Assembly: GCA_017463205.1 (NCBI GenBank)
Contig: JAFTPQ010000008.1
Location: 20,896 to 84,895 of the forward strand
Direction: 5' to 3'
Length of the DNA: 64,000 bases
Origin: Clostridia bacterium
Lineage (GTDB): Bacteria; Bacillota; Clostridia; Christensenellales; Borkfalkiaceae
The translations under genes and the position numbers were made by a program. Below are positions 5,622 to 13,071 of the stretch, one piece after another. Position 1 is the first letter of the stretch; the number at the start of each line of letters is the position of its first letter. A model generated the notes under the pieces. It searched no databases, had not been told where the DNA came from, and worked only from the letters and a program-made list of their open reading frames with translations.

Positions 5622-6719
5622 ATGAAAAAACGAAAAGGGAACTCCCCGCAAGACAAGGCGGAATTTGTGTTTCAACGCATACCTGCCCCCTTGCTTTTGT
5701 GGTATAGGCAGCACAAACGGGATCTGCCGTGGCGAAAAAATCCCACGCCCTATCGCGTTTGGGTGTCGGAGATTATGTTGCAACAAACGCGTGTGGAGGC
5801 GGTGAAAGAATATTATCGCCGTTTTATGGAAGTCTTGCCGACGGTGGCGGATCTTGCGGCGTGTGAAGAAGAAAAACTGCTGAAATTGTGGGAAGGTTTG
5901 GGGTATTACAGCCGTGTACGCAATATGCAAAAAGCGGCGAAGATCATCGTGTCGGAATATGGCGGCGAACTTCCCAAAGATTTGTCGACGTTAAAAACTT
6001 TGCCGGGGATCGGCAGTTATACGGCGGGCGCAATCGCTTCGATCGCATACGGAATGCCTGTGGCGGCAGTGGACGGAAACGTGTTTCGGGTTGCGTCCCG
6101 TTTGACGGAAGATCCCACGCCTATCTCTGCGCCTGCCTACCGAACGTATTTGGAAAACGCCTTAACGGCGGTGTATCCGTCGGCGGGAAAGGATTGCGCC
6201 GATTTTACGCAGAGTTTGTTTGAATTGGGCGCAACGGTTTGCAAACCGCAAACGCCCGATTGTGATAGTTGTCCTGTAAAAGCGTTGTGTCACGCGTATC
6301 AAAGCGGTACGCAAAGCCAATATCCCGTGATGCCTGAAAAAAAAGCAAAACGGGTGGAAAACGTTTGTGTTTTTTTGATCGAAACGCCGCAAGGTTTTTG
6401 TATTCGACGTCGGGAAGAAGGCGTTTTAAAGGGAATGAACGAATTTCCTTCCCGTGTTTTAGAGGAAGGGGAAACGGCGGAAAATATTTTAAACGAATGG
6501 GGCATGTACGAGTTTACGCAAGTAAAACGTAAAAATTATACGCATATTTTCACCCATATCCGTTGGAATATGACGTGTGTTTGGATACGGACGGAAAGCG
6601 CGCCGTTTGATGCGTACACGTATGATGAAATTTTGGAAACGGTGTCCTTGCCCACGGCGTTTAAGCAGTGTATGGACATTTTAAAAGAGAGTGTGCAACA
6701 GTTGCGGTTGGAAATATAA
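5622..6719 (+). CDS. mutY: A/G-specific adenine DNA glycosylase MutY
   Basis: WYRQHKRDLPWR, VSEIMLQQTRV, the HhH-GPD motif LPGIGSYTAGAIASIA, a Cys cluster CKPQTPDCDSCPVKALC, and a NUDIX-like C-terminus. Confidence 0.9.
   Translation: MKKRKGNSPQDKAEFVFQRIPAPLLLWYRQHKRDLPWRKNPTPYRVWVSEIMLQQTRVEAVKEYYRRFMEVLPTVADLAACEEEKLLKLWEGLGYYSRVRNMQKAAKIIVSEYGGELPKDLSTLKTLPGIGSYTAGAIASIAYGMPVAAVDGNVFRVASRLTEDPTPISAPAYRTYLENALTAVYPSAGKDCADFTQSLFELGATVCKPQTPDCDSCPVKALCHAYQSGTQSQYPVMPEKKAKRVENVCVFLIETPQGFCIRRREEGVLKGMNEFPSRVLEEGETAENILNEWGMYEFTQVKRKNYTHIFTHIRWNMTCVWIRTESAPFDAYTYDEILETVSLPTAFKQCMDILKESVQQLRLEI
5671..5689 (-). repeat. Dispersed 19-nt motif, 19/19, reverse orientation, inside mutY
   Basis: The + strand reads TTCAACGCATACCTGCCCC, the exact reverse complement. 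It encodes FQRIPAP in the variable MutY N-terminus. Confidence 0.95.
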
Positions 6720-6745
6720 AAGTAGGGCTGAAAAGAGGTCGATTT

Positions 6746-7201
6746 ATGAAAAAAGAATATAAACTCACTTTTGAAATGGTGCCTGAAGAATGTTGGTATG
6801 CCAATCTTCGCAGCGTGTTAAAGCCTGCCGATTGGGATCGGGTACGCCGCGACGCATACGCCCGTGCAAACGGCAAATGTATGATCTGCGGCAGACGCGC
6901 CACAAGGTTGGAAGCGCATGAAAAGTGGAGTTACGACGATAAAAAAGCGTTGCAAAAACTGGAAGACGTCGTGGCGCTTTGCCATGCCTGCCACGAAGTG
7001 AAACACATCAGCAGAACGCAGTTAATGGGCAGAGGCGCGGAGGCGGAACAACATTTTATGAAAGTGAACGGTTGTACGCAAATGGATTTTCACGCCGCGC
7101 TTGGGGAAACGAATGAAGAATACGTCAGAAGAAATAAAATAGAAAATTGGACGACGGATATTTCTTGGTTGGAAGGTCGGTTTGACATTACATTGTTTTA
7201 A
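6746..7201 (+). CDS. Small HNH-motif protein
   Basis: CMICG..LEAHEKWSY..CHACHEVKH fits an HNH / zinc-finger pattern. ATG 6746 follows the mutY stop. Confidence 0.55.
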   Translation: MKKEYKLTFEMVPEECWYANLRSVLKPADWDRVRRDAYARANGKCMICGRRATRLEAHEKWSYDDKKALQKLEDVVALCHACHEVKHISRTQLMGRGAEAEQHFMKVNGCTQMDFHAALGETNEEYVRRNKIENWTTDISWLEGRFDITLF

Positions 7202-7238: not shown

Positions 7239-7859
7239 ATGAAAGTATTATTGGTAAACGGCAGTTATCACGAAAAGGGTTGTACGTATACGGCGCTTGC
7301 GGAAGTGGCGAAGGCGTTAAACGACAACGGAGTGGAAACGGAAATCTATCAGTTAGCGGGCAAAAAAATAGAGGGTTGCAAAGGTTGTTGGGCTTGTAAA
7401 AAGGCGAAACAATGCGTTTTTGACGACGGCACGGTGAACGATTTTGTGGCGAAAGCGGCAGAATTTGACGGTTTTGTATTCGGTTCGCCTGTCTATTACG
7501 CATCGGCGTCGGGCGCATTGATCAGCTTTATGGACAGAGTGTTTTACAGCGGCGGAAAGTTGTTGGCTTATAAACCTGCGGCGGCGGTGGTCAGTTGCAG
7601 ACGCGCGGGGGCAAGTACGACGTTCGACGTGATCAATAAATATTTTACCATCAACAATATGCCCATCGTTTCGTCCAATTATTGGAACGAGATCCACGGC
7701 AACACGGCAGAGGAAGCGGCGCAAGACGAAGAAGGTTTGCAAACGATGCGCGTGTTGGGGAACAATATGGCGTGGTTGTTAAAATGCTTGCGGCTTGGGA
7801 AAGAAGCGGGCGTCGAACCTGTAAAAGAACGCAAAGTGATGACGAATTTTATCCGCTGA
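7239..7859 (+). CDS. Flavodoxin-like fold NAD(P)H-dependent FMN reductase / iron-sulfur flavoprotein
   Basis: MKVLLVNGSYHEKGCT N-terminus with a CKGCWAC motif. GGAG RBS. TGA stop. Confidence 0.7.
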   Translation: MKVLLVNGSYHEKGCTYTALAEVAKALNDNGVETEIYQLAGKKIEGCKGCWACKKAKQCVFDDGTVNDFVAKAAEFDGFVFGSPVYYASASGALISFMDRVFYSGGKLLAYKPAAAVVSCRRAGASTTFDVINKYFTINNMPIVSSNYWNEIHGNTAEEAAQDEEGLQTMRVLGNNMAWLLKCLRLGKEAGVEPVKERKVMTNFIR

Positions 7860-7923
7860 TCGACGTAAACGAAAAACTGCGCCCCTAAAGCTTTTGGCGA
7901 TCGGGGCGTTTTGTTTCTTAATT

Positions 7924-8286
7924 GGGGCATTGTCCCTTAACCCCTTATTGGGTATTGATAAGGTTACAAGTTCCGATAACGAAAGATAGAAAGTCAAGGT
8001 CAAGTGGAACGCTTGCGGAACGTTGGTTGACTGCTGCGCAGTAGTGGCGCAAGCAAAGCTTGCTTAACTTGGGCTTAACTTCGCAAGGGCTTCCGCCCCT
8101 GCACCCTGACAAGAAACTGAGTTTCTTGACTTCCTGTTGGGGGGTGATACGGTTACAAGCTTCAGTAACGAAAGATAGAAAAGACATGATCCAACGGAAC
8201 GTTGGCGGAACGCTTGCGGAACGTCGGTTGGAGAAGACGGAATACGGTTTTGTTGTGCAAGAAAAAATTTTACAAAACTTTAACAA
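7924..8286 (+). repeat. Modular intergenic repeat, copy 1 (cassette order P-U then B-U)
   Basis: Long near-identical blocks shared with 12147-12452: 7924-8026 matches 12338-12441, 8031-8146 matches 12147-12260, and 8265-8286 matches 12431-12452. Confidence 0.85.
8196..8223 (+). promoter_or_regulatory. Three GGAACG direct repeats at exact 11-bp phasing; candidate OmpR-family binding site
   Basis: GGAACG at 8196, 8207 and 8218. Pairs with the same phasing occur at 8006/8017 and 12420/12431. Confidence 0.35.
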
Positions 8287-8336
8287 TTTTGAAATGATTT
8301 AAAAATATCTGCGTAGTATGATAAAAGTGTAGGATA

Positions 8337-8355
8337 GGGGCAGGTATGCGTTGAA
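8337..8355 (+). repeat. Dispersed 19-nt motif, 19/19
   Basis: Exact copy ending 29 nt before the response-regulator start codon, followed by atat and AAAA. Confidence 0.95.
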
Positions 8356-8384
8356 ATATAAAACAAGGAGGCAGGTGCGCGATC

Positions 8385-9055
8385 ATGGCAAAAATTTTGG
8401 TTGTAGAAGACGATCGGGCGATCAATGGATTGATCTGTTTACGGCTTCGCGCCGAAGGACACGAGGTGACGGCTTGTTACGATGGCGAGGAGGCTCTTTC
8501 CGCGATGGAAACGGAGAGCTTTTCTATGATTATCAGCGATATTATGATGCCGAAAACGGACGGGTTTCAACTTGCCGAAAACGTGCGTTTGACGGATAAA
8601 AAAATTCCCATTTATTTATGACGGCAAAGGACGACAAGCCTTCTAAATTATACGCCTATCAATTGGGAGTAGACGATTACGTAGTGAAACCCTTCGATAT
8701 GGACGTGTTTATTTTAAAGGTGTCGGCGATGTTGCGCCGCGCGGGGATCGAGGCAAGCAAGCAACTGACGGTGGGAAATCTGTCGATGAACGCGGAAGAA
8801 CATACGGCGTATTTAAACGGGGAAGAATTATCCCTCACCGTGCGGGAATTCGATTTGCTGTTTAAATTGTTGTCCTATCCGAAAAAGACGTTTACGCGCT
8901 CGGCACTGATGGATGAATTTTGGGATTACGATTCGTCGGCAACGTCGCGGACGGTGGACGTATATATGGCGAAATTGCGCGAAAAGACGTCCGATTGCGA
9001 CGGGTTCGATATCGTCACGGTACACGGGCTTGGGTATAAGGCGGTGTTGAAATGA
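8385..9055 (+). pseudogene. OmpR-family response regulator interrupted by a 1-nt frameshift near 8611-8620
   Basis: ORF 8385-8621 is the receiver domain up to KKIPIYL*. ORF 8618-9055 continues with MTAKDD..., then the rest of the receiver and the winged-helix domain, in another frame. One extra T would restore IPIYFMTAKDD. Confidence 0.85.
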
Positions 9056-10095
9056 AACAAAACAACGGTTGGGCAACGGCGTGGGGATTTTTGCTGTTTT
9101 TGCTTACCAGCGCGGTGTCGGTGACGGCGACAATGTTGGTGTACGGCAAAGTGGAAGAAACGGGCGCAGGCTTAACAACGGTGATCGTCGTTATGCTGCT
9201 GGTTGTTGTGTTTTTGGCGGTGCTGTTTACGACGGCGGACGTTATACGCCGTCGCATTGCGGTGGAAAAACCCACCGAACAAATTTTGGCGGCTACCGAA
9301 CGGATCGCAAAAGGGGATTTTAATACGCGCCTTACCGTCGAGCACCGTTACGATCGTTACGATCAGTATGACGAAATAAAGGAAAATCTTAATCTGATGG
9401 CGGAAGAATTGAAAAAGTCGGAAATTTTAAAAACCGATTTCATTTCAAACGTTTCGCACGAATTAAAAACGCCGTTGTCGGTGATCCGCGCGTATGCGGC
9501 GGAACTGCAAAAAGAAGATCTGGATGACGAAACGCGTAAAAAATACGCCGATATTATCGTAAACGCGTCGAAACGCCTGACCGATCTGGTTACAAACGTG
9601 TTAAAATTAAATAAATTGGAAAATGCGAAAATTTTACCCGAAGCGGAAAAGTTTCGTTTGGACGAAAGTCTTGCGGAAACGGTGTTTGCATTTGAGGAGG
9701 GACTGGAAAATAAAAATATCTGCTTGGACGTACAGTTGGAAGAATTGTCCGTTTATTCGGTGAAAAGTTATTTGGAAATCGTATTCAACAACTTACTTTC
9801 CAATGCCGTAAAATTCACAAACGAGGGGGGCAGGGTTGCGTTAACGTTAAAAAAGCTGGGCAAAAATGCCGTCGTAACGGTGTCGGATACGGGCTGCGGG
9901 ATCGACGAAGAAACAGGCAAGCGTATCTTCGATAAATTTTATCAAGGGGATACGTCGCACGCGTTAGAAGGCAACGGCTTGGGATTGGCATTGGTGAAAA
10001 AAGTCATCGATATCCTCGGCGGAGAAATTACGGTGGAAAGCGAACAGGGGAAGGGGACGACCTTCACCGTCGTGTTAAAAGAAACGGTGGTATAA
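9052..10095 (+). CDS. Sensor histidine kinase, intramembrane-sensing type
   Basis: Two N-terminal TM helices with a loop of about 9 aa, HAMP, the H-box FISNVSHELKTPLS, and the HATPase motifs GGRVALTL and GNGLGLALVK. ATGA overlap with the regulator gene. Confidence 0.9.
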   Translation: MKQNNGWATAWGFLLFLLTSAVSVTATMLVYGKVEETGAGLTTVIVVMLLVVVFLAVLFTTADVIRRRIAVEKPTEQILAATERIAKGDFNTRLTVEHRYDRYDQYDEIKENLNLMAEELKKSEILKTDFISNVSHELKTPLSVIRAYAAELQKEDLDDETRKKYADIIVNASKRLTDLVTNVLKLNKLENAKILPEAEKFRLDESLAETVFAFEEGLENKNICLDVQLEELSVYSVKSYLEIVFNNLLSNAVKFTNEGGRVALTLKKLGKNAVVTVSDTGCGIDEETGKRIFDKFYQGDTSHALEGNGLGLALVKKVIDILGGEITVESEQGKGTTFTVVLKETVV

Positions 10096-10171
10096 CGTAA
10101 CGGAAATTTTTGCAAAAAGTTTTGTAAAAATGCGTTGAAAAAGTCAGTGTAACAGGCATAAAGGATCGAAG

Positions 10172-11083
10172 ATGAAAGATACATTTTTGCGTATTTGGCA
10201 ACAATTAAAAAAGCCGCGCGCGGCAATTTTCGCCTTATCGTGCGTGATCACAGCATTATTATCGACAGGTTCTCTGTGTATCCTTTTGATCGATTACGAA
10301 GGCACGGCGCTTGAATACGTTGCCTACGTGTTGTTTGGACTTGCGGCGATATCGCTGACGTACACGGTGTACGGTTTCGTTTTGTATATACCCCGTTGGA
10401 AAAAGAGCCTGACGGCATGGCTGAATACCATTCCTTTGACGGCAAAGCTGATGAAAAATTACGGTTTCCGTACGGTGCTGTTTTCTGCGCTGTCTTTGAC
10501 AATATCGATTTTGTACGGGTTGTACAACGGAGTGATCGCTCTGATTTTCCATTCTATTTGGTACGGCGCATTGGCGGCATATTACATCATTTTGGTTTGT
10601 ATGCGGGGCGGGATCGTACTCTATCACGGCAAGAAACGGGGCAAAGAGCGGAAGGACGCGACAGAGATGCGGAAATACCGTAACTGCGGCATTTTATTGA
10701 TCGTTACGATCTTGGCGTTGTCGATCGCTATTTTGCAAATGGTGGCGGCGGGCGCGGGGTTTGAAAAGCAAGGCTTGATGATCTATGTGGCGGCTACGTA
10801 CACGTTTTATAAAATGACGATGTCGATCGTCAACATTTTCAAAGCGAGAAGATCGCAAGATTATACGGTGCAAACGCTCCGCAACGTAAACCTTGCCGAT
10901 GCCTTGGTGTCGATTTTGGCGTTGCAAACGTCGATGTTTATCGCCTTTTCGGACGGAACGGGCGTGGCACTGGCAAACGCATTGACGGGCGGCGTAGTTT
11001 GCGCGTTGGTGTGTGCGTTGGGTGTATTTATGATCGTGAAAGGAAACCGTGCGTTGCGCAACGAAAAGAAGAAAAATGCATAA
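10172..11083 (+). CDS. Polytopic membrane protein, unknown function
   Basis: A 303-aa hydrophobic ORF directly downstream of the kinase gene. Confidence 0.55.
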   Translation: MKDTFLRIWQQLKKPRAAIFALSCVITALLSTGSLCILLIDYEGTALEYVAYVLFGLAAISLTYTVYGFVLYIPRWKKSLTAWLNTIPLTAKLMKNYGFRTVLFSALSLTISILYGLYNGVIALIFHSIWYGALAAYYIILVCMRGGIVLYHGKKRGKERKDATEMRKYRNCGILLIVTILALSIAILQMVAAGAGFEKQGLMIYVAATYTFYKMTMSIVNIFKARRSQDYTVQTLRNVNLADALVSILALQTSMFIAFSDGTGVALANALTGGVVCALVCALGVFMIVKGNRALRNEKKKNA

Positions 11084-11095
11084 TGGGAGAGAATT

Positions 11096-11506
11096 ATGAA
11101 AGAAACAAAAGATAAATTTGCCTATCAGTACAGCGCTCCGACCGAGCGCGAGCGCAAAACTGCGGAAGAGATTCGCGCAAGATATGCTCCGGAGGAAGAA
11201 ACCACGGATAAATTGTCGCAGTTGCAACGTTTGGATAAAAAAGCGTCGCAACCGCCTATGATCGTTGCGCTCAGTTTCGGTGTTGTGGGCATCTTGATTT
11301 TCGGGACGGGGTTGACAATGATCCTCGAATGGACTTTATTGTTATATGGTTGCCTCGTCGCGCTTTTGGGGTTGTTGCCCGTGGGGTTTGCATATCCCGT
11401 CTATCGAAAGTTGGCGGCGCGCGGACGAAAAAAATACGGCGCGCAAATTTTGAAATTGAGCGAAGAAATTTTAAAAGAATCGGAAGAAAACGACGAAAAC
11501 TCTTAA
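11096..11506 (+). CDS. Small two-TM membrane protein; paralog of 12552-12896
   Basis: Shares the pattern L..L.KKA..P..I.A..FG.VG.L..G.G...YxK....G..KY...IL.LS.EIL with the 12552 product. Confidence 0.55.
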   Translation: MKETKDKFAYQYSAPTERERKTAEEIRARYAPEEETTDKLSQLQRLDKKASQPPMIVALSFGVVGILIFGTGLTMILEWTLLLYGCLVALLGLLPVGFAYPVYRKLAARGRKKYGAQILKLSEEILKESEENDENS

Positions 11507-11569
11507 ACGAAAAATAAAAACGCGACCTTTTTAACAGGTTGCGTTTACTCTTTTATCGGTTTGTTTTTT

Positions 11570-11863
11570 CTATGCTTGCAGGTATGTGTTTGTCAGCAAT
11601 TCGTCAACGGAAACATGAAAGATTTGGCAAAAATACAGCAATTCGATATCCGTAACGAACCGCTGACCGCTTTCGATGCGCTGAATGGCGTTTTTATCTA
11701 TGTCCAATCCCAACAGTTGGCATTTCTGCGCCAACGATTGTTGCGACATTTTCGGGGTCGCTTGTTTCCGAAGTTGACAAATCGCGTTTCCGCAAACGTT
11801 GTTTTTTCCACTTTTTGCTCTGTTTTTAAACATTTTTTTTCCTATATATACGTTTTTTGACAT
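11570..11863 (-). CDS. XRE-family helix-turn-helix transcriptional regulator (start may be ATG at 11833)
   Basis: MSQQSLAQKCQLLGLDIDKNAIQRIESGQRFVTDIELLYFCQIFHVSVDELL is a typical Cro/C1 HTH. Confidence 0.7.
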   Translation of the reverse strand: MSKNVYIGKKMFKNRAKSGKNNVCGNAICQLRKQATPKMSQQSLAQKCQLLGLDIDKNAIQRIESGQRFVTDIELLYFCQIFHVSVDELLTNTYLQA

Positions 11864-11908
11864 TTTGTGCTTGACAAATTATATGATAGTATGTTAAAAT
11901 AATAAAAA

Positions 11909-12007
11909 TGACATTCACTAAATGTCAAAAAAATAAAACAGATCACACTCCTAAAAAATTTTTAAAAATACACTTTTGCGAAAAAAAGCCGCAAGAGTGT
12001 ATTTTTT
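11909..12007 (+). ncRNA. Candidate small RNA or leader: 5' hairpin plus strong intrinsic terminator
   Basis: A TTGACA-N18-TAAAAT promoter at 11871-11900. A TGACATT-CACTA-AATGTCA hairpin or operator at 11909-11927. A 13-bp stem at 11968-12002 followed by T5. No RBS-preceded ORF. Confidence 0.3.
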
Positions 12008-12146
12008 GTTGCGACCTAGGGGCTTGGAACGTGTTTTTAGGGTGAAGTTTTTTATGTTGAGTGAAGTTCGCTTTGCGAGTGAAGTTTTGTCTTGCGACAA
12101 AGTTGTAGCTGGGATTTATAACGGGCAACGACAAGCGTTGCCATAA

Positions 12147-12452
12147 CTGCTTCGCAGTAGTGGCGCAACCTTTCGGTTGCTTAATGGGGGCTTTACTTTG
12201 CAAGGGCTTCCGCCCCTGCACCCCGACAAGAAACTGAGTTTCTTGACTTCCTGTTGGGGAACGACAAGGTTATTAATATCAATAAAGAAAGATAGAAAGA
12301 CAAGATCCAACGGAACGTTGGCTGCCCACACCCGTAAGGGACAATGCCCCTTAACCCCTTATTGGGTGTCGATACGGTTACAAGTTCCGATAACGAAAGA
12401 TAGAAAGTCAAGGTCAAGCGGAACGCTTGCGGAACGTTGGCGGTTTTACAAA
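12147..12452 (+). repeat. Modular intergenic repeat, copy 2 (cassette order B-U then P-U)
   Basis: See copy 1. Same modules in the same orientation, but with the cassette order permuted. Confidence 0.85.
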
Positions 12453-12551
12453 ACTTTAACAAAACCTTTTCAAAACGTTTACCAAATTTTATTTTTTTGG
12501 AAATATATTCGGCGTATAATAGTGGTATCAAACAAAACCACGGAGGACGTT

Positions 12552-12896
12552 ATGGATAGAACAATAAAAATAGCGACAAACATTCGCGATCAATATACGG
12601 AAAAGCCCAAAACAAAATTGGACGAATTGATCGAATTAAATAAAAAGGCGAAACGCCCCGCGGAAATTTTCGCTTACGGGTTTGGTACGGTCGGTACGTT
12701 AGTGCTCGGTGCGGGAATGTGCTTGGCAATGGAAGTGTTGGGCACGGGACTGATGCCGATAGGAATTGCAATCGGGCTGGTGGGGATCACAATGGTGGCG
12801 ATAAATTACACGTTGTATAAAGGCTTGGAAAAGAAGGGAAAAGCCAAATACGCAAAAAAGATATTGTCGCTCAGCAACGAAATTTTACACGAGTAA
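12552..12896 (+). CDS. Small two-TM membrane protein; paralog of 11096-11506
   Basis: GGAGG RBS before ATG 12552. The track ORF from 12177 is an artefactual extension through the repeat. Confidence 0.55.
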   Translation: MDRTIKIATNIRDQYTEKPKTKLDELIELNKKAKRPAEIFAYGFGTVGTLVLGAGMCLAMEVLGTGLMPIGIAIGLVGITMVAINYTLYKGLEKKGKAKYAKKILSLSNEILHE

Positions 12897-12930
12897 GAAA
12901 AAAATAATATTATATCGGAGGATAAAAACA

Positions 12931-13071
12931 ATGGCAAACTTTTTCAAAAAAGCATTTCAGGACATGAAGGACAACGCAAAGGCGCAACATGAAGTGGACA
13001 AAGCGAATTTCGAGGCGGTGAAAGCCGAATCGAAAGCAACGCGGGAAGAAGCGAAGATGACGCCCGCGTAA
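12931..13071 (+). CDS. Small charged coiled-coil ORF (46 aa); the frame continues past an in-frame TAA to 13179
   Basis: GGAGGA RBS 8 nt before ATG 12931. MANFFKKAFQDMKDNAKAQHEVDKANFEAVKAE... with a TAA at 13069-13071, after which 35 further Lys/Glu/Ala-rich codons continue in the same frame. Confidence 0.35.
   Translation: MANFFKKAFQDMKDNAKAQHEVDKANFEAVKAESKATREEAKMTPA

Follow-up and report, generated by a model that had tools for sequence, protein, structure and literature searches.

Two blocks of repeated DNA lie on either side of a two-component regulatory locus in a stretch of 64,000 nt from a Clostridia bacterium (assembly GCA_017463205.1, contig JAFTPQ010000008.1; the whole stretch is called the window here). 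With a probability of roughly three in four, we consider these blocks to be independent arrays of a composite small interspersed repeat family restricted to Candidatus Scatosoma and allied uncultured gut Clostridia. The best reading of the family is a mosaic intergenic repeat of the BIME or BOX kind, selfish or neutral, which accreted upstream of both promoters that the blocks adjoin. Both blocks belong to a family whose copies are dispersed among related genomes. The family's hairpins covary, its arrays are present in some genomes and absent from others at orthologous sites, and neither their orientation nor their genomic context is biased.

Array 1 (7924-8230) holds a P-U unit followed by a B-U unit, and array 2 (12146-12440) holds the same two units in the order B-U then P-U, both on the plus strand. 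Reading of the sequence, a repeat search and a self-blastn comparison all returned common blocks that were 85-93% identical and permuted in order. By blastn, the two P-U units listed in Table 1 matched over 103 nt (93% identity, E 8e-40) and the two B-U units over 178 nt (85% identity, E 3e-51), with the U parts of P-U and B-U cross-matching at 75-80%. Perfect matches of up to about 40 nt occur inside the P-U units, and a 32-mer from U, GGTTACAAGTTCCGATAACGAAAGATAGAAAG, was found exactly twice and had no match in 100 shuffles of the window. Both arrays are intergenic (7860-8384 and 11864-12551), and the gene calls of the source contig place no gene at either. The initial annotation of this DNA, made from the sequence alone, had described two near-identical, non-coding blocks in the same orientation with permuted hairpin cassettes, and that description holds on each count, the modular build being further borne out by sub-modules that stand separately in other genomes and by P-U and B-U units on other contigs. 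No further cassette was detected elsewhere in the window by blastn or by the covariance model R1 introduced below, and the roughly 9 kb of the source contig to the left of the window contained no further repeat copy.

The part common to all units is a core of 45 nt with the consensus YCGAnnAn-GAAAGATAGAAA-R-nCAnGAT-[NNANCG-GAA-CGNTNN], as derived from an alignment of 63 distinct core copies (A1). It consists of the 12-nt GAAAGATAGAAA, about 8 nt of spacer and a 6-bp hairpin with a GAA loop. Behind the core, in the window and likewise in other genomes, stand zero to three tandem CGGAACGYTKG 11-mers or partial units starting at TAGAAA, the 11-mers being slipped copies of the 3' half of the core hairpin. 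The B head comprises the hairpins ACTGC..GCAGT, GCAAGC..GCTTGC, GGGC..GCCC and CAAGAAACT..GTTTCTTG, and such sub-hairpins occur separately in other genomes (L085-L089, L099, L105). B-U units 77-84% identical to those of the window were found on three unrelated metagenome contigs (L226-L228), reached through a protein-space search with a spurious open reading frame (ORF) that crosses array 2 (three hits). P, which has two hairpins, aligns together with U to the P-U units of the metagenome-assembled genome (MAG) SIG405 without gaps over 99 columns, and in another genome, MAG_159, the arrays have a head unlike these, about 170 nt long. Two hairpins differ by compensatory changes from one window copy to the other, GCAAGC..GCTTGC standing against GCAACC..GGTTGC and GTTAC..GTAAC against TTATT..AATAA. 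The first 13 nt of P are flipped between copies, reading GGGGCATTGTCCC at 7924-7936 and GGGACAATGCCCC at 12338-12350 with only the three non-palindromic positions differing, which suggests either inversion of the hairpin or insertion of the module in either orientation. Each copy of this flipped hairpin contains a G-T pair, and the strand that bears it changes from copy 1 to copy 2. Unit ends differ between copies, and tandem units share only 1-4 nt at their junctions, consistent with slippage or duplication through microhomology. All cores within any multi-core array found are in the same orientation.

The covariance model R1, built from A1, gave the four window cores scores of 57-67 bits, and no other site in the window exceeded 10 bits. 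The core hairpin covaries through the variants CCAACG/CGTTGG, GCAACG/CGTTGC, CCAGCG/CGCTGG and CAAGCG/CGCTTG. Among pattern hits collected with the outer stem positions unconstrained, pair 1 was CG in 34, GC in 18, AT in two and TA in two, and pair 2 was CG in 52, AT in three and TA in two; pair 4 was AT in 49 pattern hits and GC in nine. Four pattern hits from unrelated phyla, which served as a control, failed to pair. Pairing holds for 99% of the cells in A1, with both sides changed in 41 cells, a result reached by none of 500 shuffles and lost in all slid registers; A1 was prefiltered for at least five of six pairs, and the unfiltered pattern-hit counts are the fairer figure for covariation.

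The family was collected from relatives by pattern and by model. A first pattern that required the GGTTAY hairpin of U gave no match and was too specific, that hairpin being variable. The pattern GAAAGATAGAAA-N12-15-GGAACGYTKG matched 15 stretches in GTDB genomes, namely two Ca. Scatosoma MAGs, 'Clostridiales bacterium SIG405' and RGIG4556, as well as six metagenome contigs. A looser pattern matched 43 stretches in about ten related MAGs, plus the four single hits in unrelated phyla used as the control above. With R1, 82 cores were found in the fetched loci of the Scatosoma clade (about ten related MAGs), of which MAG_159 contributes at least 25 and SIG405 at least 16. The model found no core in relatives' two-component loci, at the four out-of-clade hits or in the flavodoxin neighbourhoods of close relatives. 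Searches of viral contigs yielded a single chance match, inside a coding region, and no repeat copy, and PLSDB plasmids and INPHARED phages gave no match. In the literature, the motif strings led to no relevant paper, only to unrelated eukaryotic ones. The initial annotation had also allowed for a simple local duplication, should the cassettes prove confined to this site and free of covariation; both recurrence in relatives and hairpin covariation were found.

The genomic context of the arrays was determined with a simple codon-usage gene caller. Neighbours include ten unrelated housekeeping genes, among them those for SMC, formate-THF ligase, IlvC/IlvD, HisS, RsmG, FakA and a ParA-like protein. 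Tandem, convergent and divergent contexts numbered 28, 6 and 6 against a background of 75, 13 and 12% (p = 0.80), and in tandem contexts 16 arrays ran with transcription and 13 against it (p = 0.71). At its hairpin end, an array is frequently separated by 1-20 nt from a stop codon or by 8-100 nt from a start codon.

Comparison of orthologous sites revealed gain and loss. In L006, a Ca. Scatosoma MAG, the gene order matches that of the window, with 88% amino-acid identity in the flavodoxin-family protein and 89% in the C-terminal part of the response regulator. Its two corresponding spacers of about 140 and 200 nt hold neither cores nor the helix-turn-helix gene of the window, and terminators abut both regulator boxes (see below). 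L142 and L144 also have the two-component genes and no cores. The array-free arrangement would be the ancestral one, still present in a related species. A second site lies in the operon that joins a glycyl-radical enzyme (GRE) gene to the gene for its activase; in MAG_159, three arrays flank this operon. We scanned 56 related loci with R1 and measured the spacer between gene and activase in 15. This spacer is 5-57 nt long in eight of the 15, 363 nt with plus-strand cores in L145 (region 6577-6942) and 296 nt in L152 (region 6258-6556), where minus-strand cores begin 8 nt past the stop codon. Head modules or a degenerate core occupy the site in three other genomes, and in more than 50 of the 56 loci no cores were found. 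The opposite orientations in L145 and L152 at one site indicate that arrays were gained in separate events and in either orientation, and that their presence within an operon is tolerated. No target-site duplication was recognised between filled and empty sites (the window against L006; L145 and L152 against L148, L150 and L153), which are too diverged for nucleotide-level junctions. Separately, the spacer of the outlier L156 measures 2.6 kb and holds an inserted coding region, and the long spacers, filled with different hairpin modules, form a hotspot for mosaic repeats inside this operon.

Composite small interspersed repeats, a class including BIME, BOX and NIME, are multi-copy intergenic elements of less than about 300 bp whose sub-sequences occur in varying combinations (PMC3049150), and the array family has all of these properties. 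Like the BIME/REP clusters of enterobacteria, it is built of short hairpin modules in mosaic intergenic arrays that vary between relatives (PMC3733652, PMC3049150), and in both the repeats often lie just downstream of genes or inside operons and are plausibly co-transcribed. REPs, however, are palindromes of 20-40 bp with a GTAG (or CGTC) tag at one end (PMC3733652), whereas the 63 cores of A1 show no GTAG or CGTC column, their 15-nt hairpin being preceded by ..CAnGAT and followed by variable bases. The units here are direct rather than alternating, and the opposite pairing of REPINs and BIMEs is absent from all multi-core arrays found, the cores being co-oriented. Furthermore, the hairpin has only 6 bp, the conserved part is a single-stranded 12-mer 5' of it, and no RAYT gene was seen by the arrays among the 259 proteins of the fetched loci. 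To our knowledge, tagged REPs are essentially unreported in Clostridia.

The BOX element of S. pneumoniae (boxA-boxB(n)-boxC) resembles the family in architecture, as an extensively structured composite repeat of a narrow clade in Bacillota with a tandem internal module that varies in number. Terminal inverted repeats (TIRs) resembling those of ISSpn2 are present in BOX and none were seen here, and the module set and order of the family are looser, with heads that are interchangeable and can be flipped. BOX elements are considered parasitic, yet able to affect neighbouring genes (PMC3049150). Miniature inverted-repeat transposable elements such as RUP, Correia/NEMIS, ERIC and Bcr1 are likewise folded, non-coding, intergenic, multi-copy units of 100-200 nt that are present or absent between relatives, but the family lacks TIRs of 15-30 bp, no target-site duplication was recognised at the diverged sites compared, and its units are chained head to tail. 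An inverted-repeat search over 7500-13000 yielded no such TIRs, only local hairpins and a single inverted match between the arrays, the flipped 16-nt P hairpin. Interpretations of the core as a sigma-70 or ECF-type promoter, a CsrA sponge, an integron attC site, a CRISPR or a terminator were rejected from the sequence on spacing, orientation or size.

On this basis, the family may be pictured as a library of hairpin modules (heads P, B and others) joined to the almost invariant 45-nt core. Its arrays would settle in intergenic DNA in any orientation and beside any gene type, would be gained and lost between species, and would expand and be reordered as units duplicate locally in tandem and modules are shuffled. 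In the window, each of two promoters with a response-regulator box has one array between it and an upstream terminator, namely that of the regulator/kinase operon and that of the 114-aa membrane-protein gene upstream of the cardiolipin-synthase gene. Spread might require a protein acting in trans that reads the invariant single-stranded motif together with the hairpin, as RAYT and IS200-type enzymes do with REPs. When co-transcribed, REP/BIME, BOX, ERIC and Correia elements act as attenuators, stabilisers or RNase targets (PMC3049150), and by analogy with REP, BIME and BOX, co-transcribed hairpins of this family may alter mRNA stability or read-through. The window arrays lie upstream of promoters and therefore would, at most, likely block upstream read-through or supply recombination homology; any effect on the two-component system, as insulation from read-through or as a recombination substrate, would be incidental.

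Several observations weigh against a selfish or neutral repeat. The 12-nt GAAAGATAGAAA and the CGGAACG centre are almost unchanged across species whose proteins are only 55-90% identical; neutral DNA would not be conserved so strongly, and a host function could lie behind this. A core stands immediately upstream of all three regulator-box promoters examined in core-bearing genomes (twice in the window, once in L105), and this could be more than coincidence. An all-against-all comparison of the 259 predicted proteins found no multi-copy or transposase-like gene adjoining the arrays, and since no transposase, TIR or target-site duplication was found, the proposed means of spread is conjectural. 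Finally, the organism's own genome was read for 64 kb plus about 9 kb with no further copies, so that dispersal within it is argued from relatives.

A different reading, which we hold as a tentative minority view, takes GAAAGATAGAAA at its fixed distance 5' of the hairpin as the signal for a hairpin-specific protein, either a new mobilising enzyme of the HUH/Y1-like type or a conserved RNA- or DNA-binding host factor, and the units as a new type of mobile hairpin module in Clostridia that lacks TIRs and a GTAG tag and chains head to tail. Under this reading, the host may have co-opted the units beside terminators, inside operons and at regulator-box promoters. HUH enzymes such as RAYT and those of the IS200 type read a hairpin together with an adjacent guide or cleavage motif on single-stranded DNA, and a sub-terminal covarying hairpin beside an invariant single-stranded motif is common to IS200/IS605 ends, RAYT substrates and the core. 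However, the element ends here at the foot of the hairpin and not several nt past it, no strand bias was seen, and no such enzyme lies near the arrays in the fetched loci. The likeness of the 12-mer and hairpin to HUH-enzyme signals is a resemblance and serves as a lead only.

It is unlikely that the units are a structured RNA acting in one sense, an option that the initial annotation had raised. Such an RNA could be a stability or processing element in untranslated regions (UTRs) or inside operons, or a family of small RNAs that a conserved RNA-binding protein recognises through the purine-rich GAAAGAUAGAAA and the ACGGAA hairpin loop. The covarying hairpins, the near invariance of the core across species and a plus-strand U-G pair in core 1 are in keeping with it, as are the many MAG_159 arrays that end 8-100 nt before start codons or sit inside operons (IlvC-IlvD; GRE gene/activase), positions in which they must be co-transcribed. 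Nevertheless, orientation relative to flanking genes is random by the counts given above, the GRE-activase site carries cores in opposite orientations in two genomes, and the window arrays lie upstream of promoters, outside UTRs. Rfam 15 had no match in the window at gathering thresholds and only chance-level matches over 7800-12700 (E 0.2-8). Wobble and mismatch events are sparse and contradictory, G-U and A-C mismatches being too few and pointing both ways, so that no functional strand was chosen. Fold z-scores are also alike on both strands of both arrays (z = -1.3, -3.4 vs -3.0, -3.3), better than or about equal to shuffles, and similar folding of both strands is expected of palindromic DNA modules.

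The locus itself runs from a MutY-like gene, a small gene and an FMN-reductase/flavodoxin-family gene through array 1 to an OmpR-type response regulator, a histidine kinase, 303-aa and 136-aa membrane proteins and a weak helix-turn-helix gene on the minus strand, which precedes array 2. Beyond array 2 lie a 114-aa membrane protein, an 82-aa ORF, cardiolipin synthase and a minus-strand cation-efflux gene. The initial annotation had presented the repeats as a feature of the two-component locus and its bracket; this no longer holds, as the cassettes adjoin unrelated housekeeping genes, and the syntenic L006 has the locus and neither array. We regard as improbable the related proposal that the arrays, as direct repeats, allow the approximately 4.4-kb module between them to be excised or duplicated by homologous recombination. 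The direct orientation of the blocks and the long perfect matches in the P-U units would permit it, and the module does vary among relatives. L136-L138 lack it, their cation-efflux gene coming straight after the flavodoxin gene, and L139 has a 322-aa ORF in its place. L142 and L144 carry the module, and L143 shows a precise deletion of it. However, that deletion, the only one seen, occurs in a lineage that has no arrays, and its junction joins two terminator hairpins with an overlap of about 10-21 nt. Arrays of the family elsewhere flank nothing in particular. In the strain group, compared through the source contig k141_180676 (ENA metagenome, 142 kb) and three near-identical contigs, the module and both arrays are present in each of the two contigs that cover it completely. 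The other two of the four with the upstream gene are short and break off within array 1 or shortly after it, in one case inside core 1. Physically, the arrays could recombine, but no such event was seen in the two module-spanning contigs. Judged from the assembled contigs, the two-component module is strain- and species-variable downstream of a conserved flavodoxin-family gene. As a separate observation on strain variation, L134 and L135 are near-identical across the window region and diverge further upstream, beyond locus position ~13,570 (an M50 peptidase of 455 against 417 aa and an extra 260-aa ORF), pointing to mosaicism among strains or to a chimeric assembly.

The 3' end of the repeat as drawn by the initial annotation proved to be a different object, a conserved response-regulator box with its promoter. 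A 19-nt block, TTTTACAAAACTTTAACAA, is identical at 8268-8286 and 12444-12462. When the repeat blocks were compared by blast with 80 homologous kinase loci, the P, B and U cassettes had no counterpart, and only the last ~20 nt recurred, upstream of regulator genes and downstream of the kinase. Of 72 homologous loci, 22 have a box that differs from TTTTACAAAACTTTAACAA at no more than four positions and sits 50-130 nt ahead of the regulator start, where the overall density of such boxes would predict about 0.75 by chance; an orthologous box precedes the homologue of the 114-aa gene in L006 and L105. Operators of the OmpR/PhoB family are expected to take the form of direct repeats with a period of 10-11 bp just upstream of the promoters they regulate; the 19-nt block belongs to direct repeats with a period of 11 bp, lies just upstream of promoters and is conserved with the regulator. 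The TTnACAAAAC boxes are therefore probably the binding site of the OmpR-type regulator, a prediction that would imply autoregulation and control of the 114-aa gene, probably including the ORFs downstream of it. That the repeat blocks are themselves locus-specific regulatory DNA, with GGAACG repeats and hairpins as upstream sites for the response regulator or some other factor, or that they merely duplicate promoter DNA, is very improbable: both arrays abut regulator-box promoters, with a similar core-then-box arrangement in L105, and the GGAACG units are spaced at 11 bp, as is typical of OmpR-family sites, but cores and GGAACG tails adjoin dozens of unrelated genes, L006, L142, L144 and other homologous two-component loci keep their TTnACAAAAC boxes without cores, and the stem covaries, unlike a sequence-specific operator. 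The symmetry around the two-component locus stems from a genome-wide repeat family together with a shared putative operator and not from a dedicated cassette device. The initial interpretation consequently stands as to a modular, non-coding element conserved in relatives, and falls in its tie to the locus and its merging of repeat with operator.

Table 1. Coordinates of repeat units, cores and adjoining features in the window.
Feature	Position	Strand	Description
Terminator-like hairpin of the flavodoxin-family gene	7879..7915	+	GCGCCCC..GGGGCG followed by TTTTGTTT; read from the sequence; array 1 begins 8 nt after it
P-U unit, array 1	7924..8026	+	P head (flipped degenerate first hairpin; ACCCC..GGGT hairpin), short GTTA/TAAC hairpin, core, one extra 11-mer; 93% identical to 12338-12440
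Core 1	7973..8017	+	GAAAGATAGAAA, spacer and CAAGTG-GAA-CGCTTG hairpin with one U-G pair; R1 56.7 bits, E 5e-12
B-U unit, array 1	8030..8206	+	B head of four small hairpins, GTTAC..GTAAC hairpin, core; 85% identical to 12146-12322
Core 2	8162..8207	+	Hairpin CCAACG-GAA-CGTTGG; R1 63.9 bits, E 1e-13
Tandem 11-mer tail, array 1	8195..8230	+	CGGAACGTTGG / CGGAACGCTTG / CGGAACGTCGG; Tandem Repeats Finder period 11, 2.7 copies
TTnACAAAAC box run, 11-bp period	8263..8286	+	Ahead of the response-regulator promoter; outside the repeat family; kept in array-free L006
Hairpin with T-runs on both sides	11964..12006		Inverted repeat and terminator-like match; between the divergent helix-turn-helix gene and array 2
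B-U unit, array 2	12146..12322	+	Compensatory changes against copy 1 in two hairpins (GCAACC..GGTTGC; TTATT..AATAA)
Core 3	12279..12323	+	R1 67.1 bits, E 2e-14
P-U unit, array 2	12338..12440	+	First hairpin TAAGGG..CCCTTA intact
Core 4	12387..12431	+	Hairpin CAAGCG-GAA-CGCTTG; R1 61.8 bits, E 3e-13
Tandem 11-bp TTnACAAAAC boxes, 3.8 copies	12444..12486	+	Tandem Repeats Finder; ahead of the 114-aa gene promoter (TATAAT near 12512; ATG 12552); outside the repeat family

Further features of the locus were recorded alongside the repeats. For both the kinase and the flavodoxin-family protein, the closest homologues belong to uncultured Clostridia, many of which carry the label Candidatus Scatosoma or Christensenellaceae. 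The response-regulator gene (8385-9055) is split into ORFs of 78 and 145 aa by a missing T near 8610, in ATTTATTT(T)ATG. This frameshift is also present in the source contig L001 and one sister contig, the sister contig L002 being intact, and represents either a real inactivating change in the strain or a homopolymer assembly error. The gene that the initial annotation had called XRE does show a helix-turn-helix match, but a weak one that falls below the Pfam cut-off. The 136-aa (11096-11506) and 114-aa (12552-12896) membrane proteins are paralogues whose tblastn hits cross-match in several relatives, and neither scores above the cut-off for any Pfam family. A perfect 16-nt complementarity, TTTTTGCGTATTTGGC / GCCAAATACGCAAAAA, links 10184-10199 at the 5' end of the 303-aa gene with 12843-12858 at the 3' end of the 114-aa gene, both on the plus strand; shuffles reach at most 10 nt, and it is not conserved in five relatives. 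Three irregularly spaced copies of GTGAAGTT (12033-12095) occupy the unique DNA between the hairpin at 11964-12006 and array 2, and 'cttcact' strings resembling them occur on the opposite strand of the GRE-activase spacer of L152.

The array family appears to be undescribed and belongs to a poorly studied, uncultured gut lineage, for which the covariance model R1 is now available for use. Repeats of this kind break short-read assemblies and seed spurious ORFs, and they can serve as strain markers. The comparisons with relatives also reveal a strain-variable two-component module and define a probable, predicted binding box for its regulator. The unusually conserved core, in turn, offers a handle for finding the protein that reads it.

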